From: an uncultured cyanobacterium
Lineage (GTDB): Bacteria; Cyanobacteriota; Cyanobacteriia; Cyanobacteriales; Nostocaceae
NCBI GenBank assembly: GCA_963706595.1
Contig: OY970166.1
Coordinates: 1,088,001-1,152,000, forward strand
Reading direction: 5' to 3'
Length of the DNA stretch: 64,000 bases
Part shown: piece by piece, positions 33,263-42,831 of the stretch
Layout of the letters: each line of letters begins with the position of its first letter
How positions within the stretch are numbered: the first letter of the stretch is position 1
The notes under the pieces: model-generated
Databases searched by the model: none
The model's input: the letters and a program-made list of their open reading frames with translations, nothing else
What the model was told of the DNA's origin: nothing
Position numbers and translations under genes: made by a program

Positions 33263-33522
33263 GTAAATTTTGACAAGTTATTTGACTGTGCTGATAAATT
33301 CTAATCTGAAGCGTAGGTTCACAAAGGCAGTTTTTTCCATCTGACTGAAGAGGCAGGGGAGCAGGGAGCAGGGAGCAAGGGGGAGTTAGAAATTATTTTA
33401 AACTTCCGGTTACTTAACAACCATTCTTCTTCTCCCCTGCCCCCTGCCCCCTGCCCCCGTTCCTCTTCTCCCCCATTCCCTCTCAAACAAAGTTAAATGC
33501 AAAAATATACCAAGTTTTACTT

Positions 33523-35088: not shown

Positions 35089-35578
35089 TCAGAGGAGTTT
35101 GGCGATCGCATTATCATCTTGACATCCAATATGGACTCCAACTGCAACAAAATTTCTTTTGAGCAAACTCCTAGTAATGTGCTGTTAGTTAAAGTTTGCC
35201 CATTGTTGATCTAGAGTGTGGGTTTTTAGTTGTTTGAGGGTGCGAGTTAGAAAGAATTTGTTTTCACCAAAGTACAAGTATGTTGGCATGGTAGTACGGC
35301 AATTGTATTGTCGTACATGAGCGTTAGCTATTAGACAAAATCTATGGTATTCCTATAATGTTCGCGTAATTCCTTTACATTAGTCTAAATTTGACATTAT
35401 TTTGAATTTCACGTATTATCACTGTAGATTTACTTACAGCTATTTTCAGGTAAATAGACCACGCGGTAGGGGCGCAAGGCCTTGCGCCCCTACTACAGAT
35501 GTGGTTCAAATAGATGAAAACTGCTGTAAATAAAACTTGTTCACCGAAATTTGCATTAGTAAAAATACTGTAGCACGT

Positions 35579-36631
35579 ATGAAATCAAATTTAGTAAAAG
35601 TTTCTGCTTTGATTGCTGGTTTATCAATAGCAACAGCGACAGTTAGCGTAACTAAAGTTGCTGAAGCTGTACCCCAGGATAGCAAGCTACAGTTTGTCCA
35701 AGATACGCAATCTGAGACTCAACCTGAAGTAATAAAAGAACAAATAGGCAAACTGAAGATTGTTAATAATACCCCTTTTATTGCCATAGTGCAACTGTAT
35801 CAGCCTAACGCAGACCAACCTGATAGATATGCTTACATTCCGCCTTGCTACGAAAGAAGTCTTCTCAATACATATAGTAATTTGTGGCAAGTCAGTTTTA
35901 ATAGTCAGGGGAAAAAAGCTATCGGCGATGTTTCGGAGAAGAAAGGAAACACTTTTGTCGTTAGAACATCTAACCTGAATCAGGATACAAATCGGACTTG
36001 CCTATATAAACTCACAGCAGAACCTGTTGTTGAAATACCATGGCAAGAGTTCTTGGCATTAGGGAAGACTGCATTTAAGAATATCGAGAAGTTACCAATT
36101 CCAGATTGGTTAAAGATGGACAATTTAGCAAGAATAAAAGCAAAATTAGACTTGCATTTCTTCAATTCTTTGCCAATAGAAATACAAATTTTAGGACAAC
36201 CTAAAGTTCAGGAAATTCAAGAATTATTATCATCATTATCACCAAATATTAGTGGAGGCAAAAAGACATTTTATAAAAGCAAAAAGGTATTTGATGAATT
36301 GTGGCAAAAGAATGGATTACCTCCTACTACAGATGAAGAGTTCACAAAAATTTCTAATTTTGCCTCTACAATCAATGACCAAAATCAAACAATAATGGCT
36401 ATGTTACCAAAAAATACAGTTTTTAATGGAAACCCTATTCAACAAGCACAAGGTGGTACAGGTGTTACCAACGTGTCTGCTAAGGAAGCATTAAGTTTCG
36501 CGTCAGTTATTTATAAAAACGATTTATTTCGAGTTTCTTCGATAATAGACTTTTCAAAATGGTATGCCTCTTCTGAATCTCAATCAAAACCCGCATCAGG
36601 AGCGTATAATGTAGCGGCATTAAATAATTAA
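35579..36631 (+). CDS. hypothetical secreted protein
   Basis: 350-aa ORF with a signal-peptide-like N-terminus (MKSNLVKVSALIAGLSIATA...AEA); no recognisable domain. Confidence 0.7.
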   Translation: MKSNLVKVSALIAGLSIATATVSVTKVAEAVPQDSKLQFVQDTQSETQPEVIKEQIGKLKIVNNTPFIAIVQLYQPNADQPDRYAYIPPCYERSLLNTYSNLWQVSFNSQGKKAIGDVSEKKGNTFVVRTSNLNQDTNRTCLYKLTAEPVVEIPWQEFLALGKTAFKNIEKLPIPDWLKMDNLARIKAKLDLHFFNSLPIEIQILGQPKVQEIQELLSSLSPNISGGKKTFYKSKKVFDELWQKNGLPPTTDEEFTKISNFASTINDQNQTIMAMLPKNTVFNGNPIQQAQGGTGVTNVSAKEALSFASVIYKNDLFRVSSIIDFSKWYASSESQSKPASGAYNVAALNN

Positions 36632-36765
36632 TCACTTACTTAATTCAATGCAATAGATATCTCCAAAACTTAGAAGGAGTCCTTGTTTTATAGTATTTCA
36701 TCAGCTTTTTTGAAGATATCTATATTTTTAGTTCCAGGAAAAATAATTAAAAAGGATAGCCAAAC

Positions 36766-37128
36766 ATGACGAGTTATATTCAATTTACAACCGAAGATAA
36801 TGAAACTATTTTAGTTGAGATTGATGCAGCAGAAATTTCTTCTAAAAAAGGAACAACAGTAAAAGTTGGACTAAAAGACAACCTTCAAGGTACTGTTGCA
36901 ATGGCTCAAAGCGTATTCTCAACGGCTATTAAAAGTGCAATTAAATACAATGTTCAAGGCTTGATTGAAGCTGTTCATAGCTTACCAAAACCTCCCAGTG
37001 AAGTTGAGATTACGTTTGGGTTAAAAGTAACAGCGGAAGTTGGGAACGTTGCTGTTGGCAAAATAAATGGCGATACAAATTACGCCGTCAAGTTAGTGTG
37101 GAAGGCAGCTTCAAATGAGTCTAAGTAA
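36766..37128 (+). CDS. Trypco1 / CU044_2847-like trypsin co-occurring domain protein
   Basis: ILVE at the N-terminus; PSEVEITFGLKV.AE.G.....K......Y.VKL.W at the C-terminus; overlaps the downstream trypsin gene; AGGA RBS. Confidence 0.8.
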   Translation: MTSYIQFTTEDNETILVEIDAAEISSKKGTTVKVGLKDNLQGTVAMAQSVFSTAIKSAIKYNVQGLIEAVHSLPKPPSEVEITFGLKVTAEVGNVAVGKINGDTNYAVKLVWKAASNESK

Positions 37129-40100
37129 AACACAAAACGAGCTTCAAGCTGGTATTGTTCGCATTTTAGATTCAGATTCAGATTCAGATACTGCTGGCAC
37201 GGGCTTTATTGTCTCTGATAAATTAGTTGTTACCTGCGCCCATGTAATTAGTCAAGAAGAAACACCACCAGAAACTGTAGATTTAGTTTTCCTCGTAGAT
37301 GATCAGAAAATGTTTACAGCGGTGGTAGTGGCAGAGTATTGGCGTGATCAAGAACACGAAGATTTAGCTATCCTGCGGTTACAAGAACCCTTGCCTGCAA
37401 AAGCTATTCCTTTGAAGTTGGGGACTTCGATACAAATTGAAGGTCATCAATTTAAAGCCTACGGCTTTCCCCAGAGTAAACAAAATAATGGAGTGTGGGG
37501 TAAAGGAGAGATTGTTGGTCAAACTAAACATGAAAAAAATAATTGTGATTTAATTCAATTGAATAGCAATGAAATTACAAAGGGTTTCAGTGGCGGGCCA
37601 GTTTTAGATCAAAACACTAATCGCGTTGTAGGCGTAATAGTAGAGCGGACATCGCCAGATAAAGGTTACGAAGAGATAAGCACCAAAACAGAAAAAATAT
37701 CGTTTCCAGTTTTAACAGGACGAGGAATTGATACCGCGTTTGCTATTCCCACTTCTGTTTTATGCGAAGTTTGCCCCGAATTAAAAATCGCAGATATTTG
37801 TCCCTATGTAGGATTATCTGCATTCACCGAGGCAGATAAAGATTATTTTCATGGACGAAACAAATTAATTACAAATTTAGCCAAGAACTTGCGAGATTAT
37901 CCCTACTTTTTGGCTGTTGTTGGATCTTCTGGTAGTGGGAAGTCCTCAGTTGTTCGGGCAGGATTGTTTGCGGAACTAAAACAAAACTCAATTTTGGGTT
38001 TTGAAAATAGTAGAATTATTCAATTTCGTCCTGGGAATGACCCCAAAGAATCACTGGTAAAGGCTTTACAATCCGAAATTGAAACAAATAACTTTTGGGA
38101 AGAATTTGCAAAATATTTGGACTTACCACACTTACAAAATCGCACTATTATTTTTATCGATCAATTTGAAGAATTATTTGCCCTCTGTTCTCCACCTGTT
38201 CAAAAAGATTTTACAGAAGGATTGTTCAATCAGATAAAAAAATCTTCGTTTATTACCCTGATTATCACAATTCGTGCAGATTTCTATGAACCTTTGCAAA
38301 ATTCATGTTTTGGGGATTGGCTCAAAGGTGGTCAAGTAAATGTAAAATCTATGACTGATGAGGAAGTTAAGTCTGCTATCACCAACCCTGCAAGAAAAGT
38401 AGGATTACAAATACAACCTGGATTAGTAGGGATAATTGCTAGAGATATTAAAAATATAAGGCATTTTTTACCATTATTAGAGTTTACATTAACAGAACTA
38501 TGGAAGAAGGAGCATAAAAATAATTGCTTAACTTATGAAGGTTATTCAAGCATAGGAGGAGTAACAGGATCACTTGTCCAAAAAGCAGAAGAAACTTTTC
38601 ATAAATTGAATCAATTAGAGCGACAATTAACTCGTCAGATTTTTACGCGACTGATTAACTATGGTTCAGCAAATATTCCAGATACCCGACTTCCTCCTTT
38701 GTCTATAGAAGAGCTAGAAGTCAAGAGTAAAGAAAATCAAGACATTCGTAACCTAGTTACAAAGTTTGCAGATGCACGTTTATTAGTTACAAGTTTTGAT
38801 GAGGGGAGTCGTAAAGAAACTGTAGAAATTATTCATGAGGCTTTAATTCTTTACTGGAAACGCTTAGACGATTGGGTGAAAGAAGACCGTGAGAACTTGC
38901 TACTGCGTCAGACTATTGATCAACAAGCTTTAGAATGGGACGATAATAACAGAAACAAAGGAGATTTAGCGTTATCAGAGAAACGCTTAAAATCTGCTGA
39001 GGCTTTATTGGAACAGGAAAACTTTTTAAGTGAAGTTCAGGTTGATTATGTAAAAGCTTGTTTGGATAGGCGCAAGAAAGAGGAAGAACGCCAAGCCCGT
39101 GAAAAGTCTCTGACGCAAGAGAATTTAGAAGAAAAGATTTCTAAACTTGCTGAAGCCGCACGGAATGATTCAAAGGATAACAAAAAGCTGGCTGCGCTTA
39201 CCAAACTAATAAAAGCAGGAAACTTACTTCAAGAATCACCCAATCCTGAAATTTGTGCGGACGTAAAATTGCATTTTCTCATAACTTTTGGGCAAATCTT
39301 TGACGAAATTGCAGAAAAGAATAGTTTTGATGGACATATAAGTTGGATAACCGGAGTAGGCTTCAGTCCAGACAGTCAAACAATTGCTTCTTCTAGTAGT
39401 GATAAAACTGTTAAGCTCTGGAGTTTTGATGGGAATTTGTTGCAAACTTTAGAGGGACATGAAGATGAGGTGATGGATGTTAGTTTCAGCCCTGACGGCG
39501 AAATGATCGCCTCTGTAAGTCAGGATAAAACTATTAGACTTTGGAAAAAATCTACAGACACTAAAATTCAGTGGATACTAGATAAGACTCTAGAAGGTCA
39601 TAGTGGTTGGATTGTTGGTGTTAGTTTCAGTCCAGACAGTCAAATAATTGCTTCTGCTAGTGAAGATAAAACCGTCAAGCTTTGGCACAAAAATGGAAAC
39701 CTGTTACATACTTTTAGTGATCATACAGATGGTGTGATCAATGTGGCGTTTAGTCCAGACGGTAAGCTGATTGCTTCTGCTAGTAAAGACCATACTATTA
39801 AACTTTGGGACTTGGAAAAAAAAGAGCTAAAAAGCAGTTCTGAAGAGCATTGGGCGGAAGTTTCAGCAGTAAGTTTTGGACTTGATAGCAAAACTTTTAT
39901 CTCAAGTGGTTGGGATAAACTTGTCATGTTCTGGAAAATCGACGAAAATGTTCCATCAGTCATACGCAGTGAAGGGCATGAAGCAAAAGTTTACTATGTT
40001 ACGTTCAGTCCAGATGGTGAAACAATCGCCGCAGTTAGCCAAGATAGTCTGATTACTCTCTGGAATAAAAATGGTGATTCTAAAAGAACTTTTAAGGGAC

Positions 40101-41149
40101 ATAAAGACAGCGTTACAAAAGTCAGTTTTAGTGCTGATAGCAAAACTCTTGTTTCTGGTAGTCTTGATGGAACTATAAAAATTTGGGATTGCACTAGGAA
40201 GTTTAATGGACATTCTAGTGAAATTTTAAAGATTGATTTCAGCTTGGATGGTGAGACAATTGCTACAGTCAGTGAAGACGGAACTGTCAAAATTTGGCAT
40301 CGTAATGGTGAACTGCTAAGTAGCTTTCAAGGTAATGATGGCGCGGTTTTTGATATTAAATTTAATCCAGACGGAAAAACTATTGCTACTGCTAGTCAAA
40401 ATAAAGTAAAAATTTGGAATTTTAAAGGCAAGAAGAAAGAAAGCTTTTCAGAATATAACAGCTTTGTTAGTAGCATTAACTTTAATCCAGAAGGAACAGA
40501 GATTGCAATAGGCTATGATGATGGAACGGTAATACTTTGGAATATTGATGATGAAGAAAGTAGAATTTTAACAAACGATACTGAAACAAAGCATATTGAG
40601 AAAGTCTATATGCTCACTTTCAGCCCTCAAGGAACAATGATTGCTACAGCTAGTGCTGACAAGACTGTGAAGCTATGGGATCTTAACGGTGAGTTACTTG
40701 CCCATAGAGAGTATGAAAGTTCTGCTTATTATGTCAGTTTTAGTCACGATGGCAGACTAATTGCTACAGCTAGTATGACAGAAAATTATGCTCACCAAAT
40801 TGAACTTTGGCATCCTAATAATAACTATCAACAAATACTTAAAGGAAATTTTAACAGTCTGGTAATGGGACTCGGTTTTATTGCTGAGGGTAAAATTGTT
40901 GCTGCAATTAGCGATGATCAAACTATAACACTCTGGAATACTGCTGATGGAAAATTGCTACAGACTATTGAGGGAAATCATAATTCCTCCATTAGTGCTG
41001 CTTGTATTTTTAGTTCACAGAATGAAAAAAGTGCGATCACTGTAGCTAATTCTGAAAATAGGATTAGTTTGTGGAGCTTAAGCTTAGATGAATTATTAAG
41101 TAATAGCAACAACCAGATTCAAGATTATCTCTCTCGTGTCTCTCATTAA
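37115..41149 (+). CDS. trypsin-like protease - STAND (nSTAND1-type) NTPase - WD40 repeat protein
   Basis: GTGF, TCAH, EDLAIL and GFSGGPV triad motifs; CPYVGL.AF, GSSGSGKSS, IDQFEELF, LPLLEF.L, VEIIHEAL; about 14 WD40 repeats. Confidence 0.93.
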   Translation: MSLSKTQNELQAGIVRILDSDSDSDTAGTGFIVSDKLVVTCAHVISQEETPPETVDLVFLVDDQKMFTAVVVAEYWRDQEHEDLAILRLQEPLPAKAIPLKLGTSIQIEGHQFKAYGFPQSKQNNGVWGKGEIVGQTKHEKNNCDLIQLNSNEITKGFSGGPVLDQNTNRVVGVIVERTSPDKGYEEISTKTEKISFPVLTGRGIDTAFAIPTSVLCEVCPELKIADICPYVGLSAFTEADKDYFHGRNKLITNLAKNLRDYPYFLAVVGSSGSGKSSVVRAGLFAELKQNSILGFENSRIIQFRPGNDPKESLVKALQSEIETNNFWEEFAKYLDLPHLQNRTIIFIDQFEELFALCSPPVQKDFTEGLFNQIKKSSFITLIITIRADFYEPLQNSCFGDWLKGGQVNVKSMTDEEVKSAITNPARKVGLQIQPGLVGIIARDIKNIRHFLPLLEFTLTELWKKEHKNNCLTYEGYSSIGGVTGSLVQKAEETFHKLNQLERQLTRQIFTRLINYGSANIPDTRLPPLSIEELEVKSKENQDIRNLVTKFADARLLVTSFDEGSRKETVEIIHEALILYWKRLDDWVKEDRENLLLRQTIDQQALEWDDNNRNKGDLALSEKRLKSAEALLEQENFLSEVQVDYVKACLDRRKKEEERQAREKSLTQENLEEKISKLAEAARNDSKDNKKLAALTKLIKAGNLLQESPNPEICADVKLHFLITFGQIFDEIAEKNSFDGHISWITGVGFSPDSQTIASSSSDKTVKLWSFDGNLLQTLEGHEDEVMDVSFSPDGEMIASVSQDKTIRLWKKSTDTKIQWILDKTLEGHSGWIVGVSFSPDSQIIASASEDKTVKLWHKNGNLLHTFSDHTDGVINVAFSPDGKLIASASKDHTIKLWDLEKKELKSSSEEHWAEVSAVSFGLDSKTFISSGWDKLVMFWKIDENVPSVIRSEGHEAKVYYVTFSPDGETIAAVSQDSLITLWNKNGDSKRTFKGHKDSVTKVSFSADSKTLVSGSLDGTIKIWDCTRKFNGHSSEILKIDFSLDGETIATVSEDGTVKIWHRNGELLSSFQGNDGAVFDIKFNPDGKTIATASQNKVKIWNFKGKKKESFSEYNSFVSSINFNPEGTEIAIGYDDGTVILWNIDDEESRILTNDTETKHIEKVYMLTFSPQGTMIATASADKTVKLWDLNGELLAHREYESSAYYVSFSHDGRLIATASMTENYAHQIELWHPNNNYQQILKGNFNSLVMGLGFIAEGKIVAAISDDQTITLWNTADGKLLQTIEGNHNSSISAACIFSSQNEKSAITVANSENRISLWSLSLDELLSNSNNQIQDYLSRVSH

Positions 41150-41372
41150 AATCCCCAGTCTTGAAGTACGTGTATCTACCGTATCCGCGTTGCATTTGAT
41201 TGAAGCGTAACAAGTTAATACGTTAATGTTTTACTTACTTATGTTCCGTACACAATCGCTCTCATTATCAGTATAATCCCCCATTCAAAACAGACTCAAC
41301 TGCGCTTTAGCAAGGATTTCCAAATCAATTTTGATAAGCGATCGCCTAAGTGTAAAAATGAATAAAGTCGAG

Positions 41373-42404: not shown

Positions 42405-42421
42405 ATTTGAATTTCCTCTGA

Positions 42422-42573
42422 TATAGGACTCATATTTGATTTATGAAACACACGTAGGGTGTGTTATCCAGGAGATTACGGCACCAAGACCCAGAAGACG
42501 GTGCGTTAGGCTAAAGCCATAACACACCCTACATATACTTAGATTTTTTCAATAATCAAATCGGATTCCTATA
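42422..42573. mobile_element. MITE-like element (TATAGGA.TC..ATTTGATT ends) enclosing a REP-like GTAG doublet
   Basis: Imperfect ~25-bp terminal inverted repeats; internal GTAGGGTGTGTTAT...ATAACACACCCTAC. Confidence 0.65.
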
Positions 42574-42831
42574 TCTATTTAATAAATATAAGTTCTTCCA
42601 GACTGATAATCATGGTATATATTTTCTTAGGATATCAGGTGATCCAAAATAACTTGAAAACCAAGCAAGATTAAAAGCCCAAAATATTGCTAAAATACCT
42701 CAAAAGATAGATGCTTAATTAATTTAATTAACTACTAATCATTTATAAAATCAATTGCGTTTTTTGTTTATAAAATTATCTGAGATTATTCTCACTTATG
42801 CGAATTAACCTAAAAGCCTGATAAATCAAGT

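Follow-up and report, generated by a model that had tools for sequence, protein, structure and literature searches.

A Trypco1 and trypsin-nSTAND1-WD40 gene pair in a variable cyanobacterial slot: a candidate protease-activated cell-death module

The window, i.e., the whole 64,000-nucleotide stretch of DNA analyzed, carries a small gene that overlaps by 14 nt the start of a much longer one on the same strand (Table 1), as a first-pass annotation had noted. The small product is a Trypco1 protein, and the Pfam match that the annotation had called for bears this out (55.6 bits to PF19493 against a cut-off of 24.6). Its gene sits immediately upstream of the protease-STAND gene, whose trypsin-like peptidase is intact. 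This pairing is fixed, with related trypsin-STAND genes directly downstream of Trypco1 at loci of Cyanobacteria, Chloroflexota, Acidobacteriota, and Bacteroidota. The pair is a member of a recently described bacterial class of protease-activated pore (self-destruct) systems; the kind of module is already known and common, and the locus adds a further copy.

Table 1. Positions of genes, domains, and proposed functional elements in the window.
Feature	Position	Strand	Basis
Variable slot, Na+/H+ antiporter gene to AI-2E transporter gene, holding a 364-aa orphan gene and the pair	35089..41372	.	Congener comparison
364-aa gene, signal-peptide-like start, no family	35537..36631	+	No Pfam/PADLOC/NCBIfam match
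Trypco1 (Pepco-class) small protein, predicted latent pore-forming effector, 120 aa	36766..37128	+	PF19493, NF041216, ESM Atlas Trypco1 clusters 0.94
Proposed pro-piece: N-terminal beta-hairpin particular to Trypco1, aa 3-19	36772..36822	+	AF2 strands 3-8, 14-19
Linker motif K33-V34-G35-L36, proposed cut between V34 and G35	36862..36873	+	Disordered segment; conservation vs shuffled linkers
Amphipathic helix aa 40-71 and beta-hairpin aa 79-113, predicted barrel-forming core	36883..37104	+	AF2, sequence pattern
Trypsin-nSTAND1-14×WD40 protein, 1344 aa	37115..41149	+	
Trypsin-like (HtrA/Deg-fold) serine protease domain, triad H43/D83/S159	37115..37780	+	Trypsin_2, Foldseek
nSTAND1 NTPase module, intact Walker A/B	37802..38959	+	PF20703
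Helical arm/long helix, STAND to repeats	38960..39319	+	AF2 helices 622-633, 640-684, 689-707, 715-729
Presumed sensor of 14 WD40 repeats, probably folding as two propellers of seven blades each	39320..41074	+	Repeat count, Pfam

The protease domain of the long protein matches Trypsin_2 over aa 28-174 (76.8 bits), and its best Foldseek matches are Deg1, MucD, DegP, DegQ, and HtrA2. The triad motifs TCAH (40-43), EDLA (82-85), and GFSGG (157-161) read earlier from the sequence hold up on alignment, the three catalytic residues being kept in 46/46 homologs, and I154 occupies the S1-pocket position equivalent to DegP I205. The nSTAND1 module is full length (345 bits to PF20703, aa 230-615, model positions 1-378 of 379), and its Walker motifs are likewise confirmed (GSSGSGKSS, 270-278; IDQFEE, 348-353), with K276 and D349/E352 invariant among aligned homologs. 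AF2 modeled aa 1-730 with a pLDDT of 87, a region for which the search of solved structures returned no match by sequence. The estimate of about 14 WD40 repeats is supported: repeat ends of the WD type number 14 from residue 766 to residue 1320, and 11 stretches pass the Pfam WD40 model individually. Among three close homologs, WD40 identity is 78-91% and STAND identity 83-93%; the WD40 part is thus no more divergent than the rest of the protein and gives no sign of sensor diversification. Hypervariability of the WD40 part and repeat shuffling at the DNA level were also looked for, and none was seen.

Of the NLR/Avs/Apaf-1 layout originally assigned to this protein, the predicted propellers do follow the NTPase, but the STAND is of the nSTAND1 type and no Avs family model was matched: the PADLOC and NCBIfam models, from libraries that lack the newer Avs families, gave no whole-protein match, and the Avs1b model covered the protease only (aa 24-179, 50 bits against a cut-off of 1500). 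Elsewhere, the same trypsin-nSTAND1 front is joined to WD40, pentapeptide, FGE, HEAT, or kinase ends, i.e., modules are swapped. For example, the protein P0025 shares the STAND (64%) and WD40 repeats of the window protein yet has a Trypco2-clade protease (20%), and from that clade a Trypco2 partner may be inferred for it; the window protease falls in a clade separate from the Trypco2-linked proteases (100/100).

For the Trypco1 protein, the AF2 monomer model is modest (pLDDT 67.6). Its N-terminal hairpin is absent from Trypco2 proteins, which begin at the helix. In the C-terminal hairpin, which the first-pass annotation had described as amphipathic, polar and apolar residues indeed alternate (predicted strands 79-88, 95-98, and 106-113), and the model places in Trypco1 the amphipathic helix followed by an alternating beta-hairpin that marks the characterized Pepco protein. 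The core elements come in the same order as in Trypco2, with a weak profile match in that register (hhalign probability 0.8-2.2%, P 0.02-0.07, over helix and hairpin), and a profile search with the window protein gave no match to PF19631 (Trypco2). For a possible circular permutation between the N-terminal hairpin of Trypco1 and the tail hairpin of Trypco2, the hhalign comparison showed no corresponding alignment. Solved structures gave no match by sequence or fold (best Z 3.3), and the viral contigs searched gave no Trypco1 relative. Complex prediction with protease aa 1-226 scored 0.00 (mark 0.32), which is evidence neither way.

Recently, Evans et al. grouped Trypco1 and Trypco2 as Pepco and showed that a trypsin fused to a STAND activates this β-barrel toxin (bioRxiv 2025, 10.1101/2025.11.14.688446). 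The Pepco tested in that preprint was SsPepco of Streptomyces subrutilus, which is of the Trypco2 type (a look-alike scores 76.6 bits to PF19631) and is cleaved after Ile97 in its C-terminal tail; Avs trypsins cut between Ile and Ser as well as after Ile97. SsPepco is characterized as an SDS-resistant 9-10-mer barrel that is toxic after cleavage, and its deletion abolished toxicity; its ring is pre-formed, and that of EACC1 is induced by the cut. The case for a pore draws on images of the barrel, on models, and on mutants of the helix; the text available contains no leakage assay. In both the SsPepco-SsAvs4 pair and the window pair, a small gene of the Pepco class immediately precedes one for a trypsin-STAND-repeat protein, the core is an amphipathic helix with a beta-hairpin (predicted, for the window protein), and the cut is expected after a small aliphatic residue. 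The window protein lacks an Ile tail and instead carries an additional hairpin and a linker at its N-terminus, whereas SsPepco begins at the helix and carries a 20-residue cleavable tail; moreover, SsAvs4 is described as sensing portal, whereas the window sensor is nSTAND1-WD40. Because Trypco1-Trypco2 homology is weak in the present comparison, applying the barrel mechanism to Trypco1 depends on the grouping by Evans et al. and on shared topology.

Other known systems share part of this design. In EACC1-KrAvs12, described in the same preprint, a cut in an internal linker separates an autoinhibitory N-terminal piece from a pore-forming C-terminal piece, and Trypco1 is proposed, by analogy, to work like EACC1; however, EACC1 is of another family (no EACC1 match was found here), its protease is of the caspase type, and the cut lies at Asp49. 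The VMAP/iSTAND ternary systems likewise contain a Trypco1-trypsin effector pair and occur in multicellular hosts (Kaur et al., 2020, PMC7159879), but their MoxR and vWA genes are absent from the window slot, and the window protease is fused to intact nSTAND1 and WD40 repeats. The same effector-STAND-propeller layout, cyanobacteria included, is reported for nSTAND1 counter-invaders (Kaur et al., 2021, PMC8195603) and Apaf-1-like WD40 STANDs (PMC13581612), with caspase or EAD N-termini and no ligand given in the portions available, whereas the window protein combines trypsin with a dedicated small partner. By repeat count, two beta-propellers would follow the NTPase as in Apaf-1-like STANDs; a CARD or caspase N-terminus is missing, a trypsin fold being found in its place. 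The accessible literature describes no tested WD40/nSTAND1 sensor and no ligand for this sensor type, and the accessible part of the PMC13581612 supplement has no rows on nSTAND, Trypco, or Pepco.

The ends of Trypco1 bear on where it would be cut. In a register taken from the weak Trypco1-Trypco2 hhalign alignment, SsPepco has a conserved Ile some 10 residues beyond its final barrel strand and a removable tail of about 2 kDa; neither is seen in the window Trypco1, which stops 8 residues past W112 in the last strand with no Ile in that tail. Across Trypco1 relatives, the corresponding tail has a median of 9 aa, is three residues or shorter in 19/135, and contains Ile in 15/135. The linker offers a different candidate, as its K-V-G-L motif lies within aa 23-43, where AF2 pLDDT is below 50. 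The pattern [KR][IVA][GAS][LIVM] is present in 70/138 Trypco1 linkers (shuffles: mean 7, maximum 17). An aliphatic-then-small pair, [IVA][GAS], occurs in 62 of the 63 trypsin-linked linkers, a permissive pattern for which shuffled linkers average 47.2 but reached 62 in 0/1000 shuffles. In caspase-linked Trypco1, [KR]G is present in 12/17 linkers and missing from five (shuffle mean 4.1, equaled in 0/1000); the window linker itself also contains a K-G dipeptide. Neither motif was enriched in the opposite class among these 63 and 17 linkers. The caspase-linked proteins form one clade, and the covariation of motif and protease therefore amounts to a single switch. Protease specificities fit the motifs, given I154 at the DegP I205 position, the Ile-Ser cuts of Avs trypsins, and the cleavage of LcCaspase between R and G. 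The sequence comparisons thus suggest that the activating cut of Trypco1 probably falls near the N-terminal end, in the linker, and not in a C-terminal tail. A reading of K-V-G-L as a homolog of the I-G-L helix cap at the Trypco2 N-terminus was rejected, since the weak hhalign alignment puts the beginning of Trypco2 at residue 51, which lies 16 residues further on.

The slot housing the pair, flanked by Na_H_Exchanger and AI-2E genes, is near-empty (<1 kb) in 5/10 congeners. In one other congener (G005) it holds type III-D CRISPR, WYL, and Card1, in another (G002) a PLD-SNF2-type IIG restriction enzyme, and in a third (G004) non-defense cargo, apparently metal-efflux and other genes. The slot is thus one used by defense systems, which upholds the defense setting suggested earlier. 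Distribution is patchy: a STAND match at E<=1e-75 was found in 0/10 congeners and 5/388 family genomes, and GC3 is low, at 0.27 (about the 10th percentile). Terminal repeats or target duplications were not found at the slot edges; HIP1 sites number 2 in the 6.3 kb of the slot versus 0.78 per kb, too few to count. The 364-aa gene gave no match in Atlas, plasmid, or family searches and has partial homologs in 10/200 family genomes, with no Trypco1 nearby at the 9/9 such loci examined; it was co-inserted and is probably not part of the mechanism.

For the window pair, we infer cleavage, pore formation, and defense as follows. A ligand, most likely a phage protein, would bind the WD40 propellers; nSTAND1 would then oligomerize with ATP, and the clustered HtrA-like protease domains would turn active, steps drawn from STAND biology and SsPepco-SsAvs4. 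From the comparisons made here, the protease would cut Trypco1 past a small aliphatic residue in the disordered N-terminal linker, between V34 and G35, freeing a hairpin piece of about 34 residues from the core, which could then kill the cell by forming, or opening, a beta-barrel oligomer in the membrane. We give this two-gene, protease-gated module of the abortive-infection type, with the linker cut licensing a membrane pore, slightly better than even standing. The initial interpretation is therefore supported in part: its protease-activated cell-death or pore reading agrees, by analogy, with the Pepco class as Evans et al. describe it, and its defense setting is sustained, but its Avs assignment found no family match. 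It had named no cut site in the small partner.

The linker motif could instead be a docking or pseudo-substrate site by which Trypco1 inhibits or adapts a protease that itself kills or signals through host-protein cleavage. A motif matched to the S1 preference of the partner would be expected of an inhibitor too, an effector-less caspase defending alone is reported in the Evans et al. preprint, and Trypco1-Trypco2 homology is weak; against this, toxicity was lost on deletion of SsPepco in the sister system, and the core with its strict polar/apolar alternation is conserved far beyond what an inhibitor loop needs, making the idea unlikely, if worth keeping in view. We also rate as improbable an outcome in which the linker is cut as proposed but the product is something other than a membrane pore, such as a filament in the cytosol or a protein that activates another effector. 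The lack of a solved-structure match for the Trypco1 model and an SsPepco pore argued from images, models, and mutants would suit it, whereas the SsPepco-like helix and hairpin, and a slot that holds no other candidate effector, speak for a pore.

A further question concerns the trigger: the same protease-effector chemistry might answer to stress, damage, or filament development rather than to a phage protein. The genome encodes four more long proteins with nSTAND1, and the N-termini of three of these are caspase-like; close chassis relatives carry kinase, GAF, or PAS ends; the WD40 sensors show no excess divergence; and stress triggers are raised for related modules by Evans et al. Patchy presence, low GC3, and the occurrence of CRISPR and restriction genes in the corresponding slot of congeners are, on the other hand, typical of defense cargo, and a cellular trigger is accordingly judged rather unlikely.

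Beyond the locus, Pepco, which outnumbers every other protease-linked effector class, may have two opposite activation routes: loss of a C-terminal tail in Trypco2, and removal of an N-terminal hairpin in Trypco1 in the manner of gasdermin or EACC1, with the linker rewritten from Val-Gly to Lys-Gly at the switch from trypsin to caspase, and here under a putative Apaf-1-like double-propeller sensor. We hold this generalization tentatively, at a little under even confidence; if true, it would describe a minimal bacterial apoptosome-to-pore circuit. The published Pepco mechanism is inapplicable to Trypco1 as written, as it rests on one Trypco2-type protein and Trypco1 has no such tail. Since the linker analysis points to one residue pair, the way in which the larger half of this class is activated becomes directly testable, and a pair of only two genes whose read-out would be cell death provides a good handle for finding the ligand of the WD40 sensor in bloom-forming filamentous cyanobacteria. 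In this cyanobacterial order, Trypco1 is present in 97/201 genomes and Trypco2 in 15/201. A first search of genome contigs with the protease as query gave no match. RNA-library contigs from one metatranscriptome study, which do not show transcription, cover a copy about 91% identical, and a single contig carries both Trypco1 and the protease.

The gene pair is real and intact. The first-pass annotation had described a small gene overlapping a large trypsin-STAND gene by 14 nt, and both ORFs, the overlap and all of the motifs quoted from the two proteins are present in the window sequence. As proposed, the small gene encodes Trypco1 (55.6 bits in an HMM scan, against a cut-off of 24.6), and the large protein comprises a Trypsin_2 domain (aa 28–174), a full nSTAND1 domain (aa 230–615) and 14 WD-type repeats. 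The catalytic triad is kept in 46/46 aligned homologues, a subset of the 120 listed matches, and the Walker residues are invariant in the same set. A confident AF2 model of aa 1–730 (pLDDT 87) has HtrA/Deg proteases as its best fold matches. HtrA-type enzymes cleave after Val/Ile, and I205 lines S1 of DegP (PMC6509562); in the window protease, I154 (I or V in 44/46 homologues) sits five residues before S159, a spacing that suggests equivalence to DegP I205. Among close homologues, conservation is lowest in the protease (69–76% vs 83–93% for STAND), which bears a long, variable hairpin loop; both features could reflect pressure from inhibitors.

The pair belongs to a class that is already known and common. 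Trypco1 and Trypco2 were named by Kaur et al. (2020; PMC7159879), as was nSTAND1 (Kaur et al., 2021; PMC8195603); both Trypco types were reported near DGRs (Dore et al., 10.1101/2023.09.22.558884) and grouped as Pepco (Evans et al., 10.1101/2025.11.14.688446). The latter study shows that SsPepco, a Trypco2 type starting with its helix, forms 9–10-mer barrels that are lethal after SsAvs4 removes a 2-kDa tail behind Ile97. A literature search found no experimental study of any Trypco1, and the supplementary figures of Evans et al. may hold a relevant Pepco alignment. By analogy with SsPepco-SsAvs4, the window pair may work in the same way, with Trypco1 as its small protein.

Judging from sequence, however, the published C-terminal cut of SsPepco cannot apply to this Trypco1, which lacks the C-terminal tail that defines characterised Pepco. 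An SsPepco look-alike, judged so by eye (L104), scores 76.6 bits to Trypco2, and trypsin-linked Trypco2 proteins carry tails of at least 17 residues beyond the domain (13 proteins). The Trypco1 core aligns only weakly with Trypco2 (probability 0.8–2.2%), and in this alignment the last strand closes with W112, so that the Ile97 equivalent would fall past the end of the 120-aa protein. Of 139 aligned homologues, 135 have this Trp; the median length of their tails after it is 9 residues, with 19 tails of at most 3 residues and 15 that contain Ile. The proteases linked to Trypco1 and Trypco2 form clean separate groups (31 vs 9 rows, 100/100 support; 9/47 loci yielded no row).

The N-terminal linker offers a candidate site instead. 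In the Trypco1 model, a predicted hairpin (3–19) is followed by a disordered linker (23–43), a helix (40–71) and a second hairpin (79–113). Positions 33–36 are conserved within the otherwise variable linker (K 67%; A 63%/V 15%; G 85%; L 60%/I 19%). Without alignment, [KR][IVA][GAS][LIVM] occurs in 70/138 linkers, whereas shuffled ones give a mean of 7, and in a broader set [RKP][IVA][GAS] occurs in 38/57 against 14 expected; this set left out ten duplicate, truncated or atypical loci, which were restored in the next step. The pooled 117 Trypco1 loci, from searches of which one supplied the ~70 best-scoring of 183 matches, gave 110 distinct linkers classed by neighbour gene: 63 trypsin-linked, 17 caspase-linked and 30 without class (contig ends, partner >1.5 kb away or missed). 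Eleven of 18 caspase neighbours were scanned, with Peptidase_C14 in 11/11 and nSTAND1 in 10/11. The motif [IVA][GAS] is present in 62/63 trypsin-linked linkers (shuffle mean 47.2; 0/1000 reach the observed count) vs 12/17 caspase-linked ones (mean 12.7, no enrichment), whereas [KR]G shows the reverse, with 12/17 caspase-linked (mean 4.1; 0/1000) and 11/63 trypsin-linked (mean 16.2, no enrichment). Orthocaspases cleave after basic residues (PMC6426788), and LcCaspase cleaves R|G (Evans et al., 10.1101/2025.11.14.688446); the two motif classes would thus match the specificities of aliphatic-cutting trypsin and basic-cutting caspase partners. Five of the 17 caspase-linked proteins lack the basic motif. 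When the linker is left out of the tree, all caspase-linked proteins fall into a single clade, whose sister group consists of four trypsin-linked proteins carrying Val-Gly/Ser motifs; the caspase-linked set therefore represents one partner switch, not 17.

The proteins of one Trypco1 clade end in V-x-C-x-F rather than the usual Trp, and their genes are arranged head-to-head with caspase-nSTAND1 genes encoded on the other strand. The linkers of this clade mostly carry Lys/Arg-Gly; a sub-branch has Met-Gly or Tyr-Gly, which may point to a caspase of altered specificity. Separately, cyanobacterial Trypco2 proteins with apparently helical tails of 35–58 residues (L055–L065) adjoin CHAT-like or unassigned non-trypsin genes.

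The pair is most likely defensive. A ligand would bind the WD40 repeats and the STAND would oligomerise, as is established for other STANDs; the protease would then become active and cut Trypco1 at V34|G35, the site suggested by the linker comparison. The N-terminal hairpin would come off and a helix-footed β-barrel would form or open, by analogy with SsPepco and with EACC1, a pore-forming partner of KrAvs12 cut in an internal linker, and the infected cell of the filament would die. The host is taken to be a filamentous cyanobacterium because close relatives at the protein level bear the names Nostoc, Aphanizomenon and Dolichospermum. We regard this whole chain as slightly better than an even bet. 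Trypco1 might instead be an inhibitor or adaptor of the protease, whose docking motif would covary with the partner just as a cut site does; although the linker classes are open to this reading, we consider it unlikely. A trigger other than phage is less likely, and a product other than a pore the least likely. With a proposed cut at V34|G35, the pair offers an inexpensive and clear-cut way to learn what activates the commoner Pepco type. Its sensor is of further interest: Apaf-1-like WD40 sensors in cyanobacteria are listed in a STAND survey whose relevant passages give no ligand for them (10.64898/2026.01.04.697583, PMC13581612).

Trypco1 occurs in 97/201 genomes of the order vs 15/201 for Trypco2. 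Five of 15 loci (L035, L036, L038, L039, L043), spanning four phyla, repeat precisely the window's combination of Trypco1 with trypsin-nSTAND1-WD40. A close STAND match (E ≤ 1e-75) was found in 0/10 congeners and 5/388 family genomes, with a Trypco1 gene directly upstream in 5/5; the two of these STAND proteins that were scanned end in pentapeptide repeats or a region without assignment. The homologue P0025 has the WD40 repeats in common and a 64% identical STAND, but its protease is only 20% identical and groups with Trypco2-linked trypsins. By sequence comparison, both ends of the nSTAND1 chassis are swapped, as in other modular defence systems. P0025 itself, an nSTAND1-WD40 chassis with a Trypco2-clade trypsin, represents an effector-module swap. 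Decayed copies were also observed: one Trypco1-linked trypsin gene ends early at 109 aa with an inserted IS607-like element (by reading, a resolvase and a TnpB-like ORF), and Trypco1 is broken or fused in L091, L093, L157 and L166, a deletion in L091 fusing it in frame with mid-protease.

The slot lies between Na+/H+ antiporter and AI-2E genes; besides the pair, it contains an orphan gene of 364 aa. The gap is only ~0.1–1 kb in 5/10 congeners (G003, G006–G009); G002 holds a type IIG-like restriction gene encoding a 1496-aa PLD-SNF2-methyltransferase fusion, G005 the effector genes of a type III-D CRISPR locus together with WYL and the CARF-nuclease Card1 (no cas1/cas2 among the ORFs scanned), and G004 ~16 kb of apparently non-defence genes, judged by reading the ORFs. 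The slot was unreadable in G001, owing to rearrangement, and in G010, owing to contig ends. The two genes of the pair have a GC3 of 0.26–0.27 vs a genome median of 0.36, which ranks them near the 10th percentile among 2026 long ORFs.

Coordinates of features in the window, its genome and the retrieved loci
Feature	Location	Remark
Variable slot	35089–41372	window
Least conserved domain (protease) with variable hairpin loop	37507–37714	window; also aa 180–205 of large protein
Orphan 364-aa gene	35537–36631	window
Short dispersed repeats	35434–35529, 33347–33485, 42421–42575	window
Perfect 28-nt palindrome	35466–35493	inside one dispersed repeat
Inverted repeat	36653–36723	16 nt, 94%, 39-nt spacer
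Further nSTAND1 proteins	G000:C1:743057–751952, 1311482–1316755, 3589516–3594798	window's own genome
G002 slot gene	L023:793–5283	
G005 slot genes	L024:1193–12026	
Interrupted trypsin gene	L004:1814–3317	
V-x-C-x-F clade, first part	L088, L092, L094, L140–L144, L151, L152	small gene ~1500–1850 per locus
V-x-C-x-F clade, remainder	L169, L171, L172, L174–L176	small gene ~1500–1850 per locus

The window's genome yielded no second Trypco1 and no Trypco2; it encodes four further long nSTAND1 proteins, of which three start with a caspase-like region and two lie in tandem. The 364-aa product is probably secreted, and a ~90-aa domain of it is common to peptidoglycan-binding-like secreted proteins in 10/200 family genomes; in a related strain (RNA-library contigs), a homologue with its middle part replaced adjoins Trypco1. 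The dispersed repeats have many copies in the genome and in congeners. The inverted repeat directly upstream of Trypco1 is unique in the genome and is possibly an operator or terminator.
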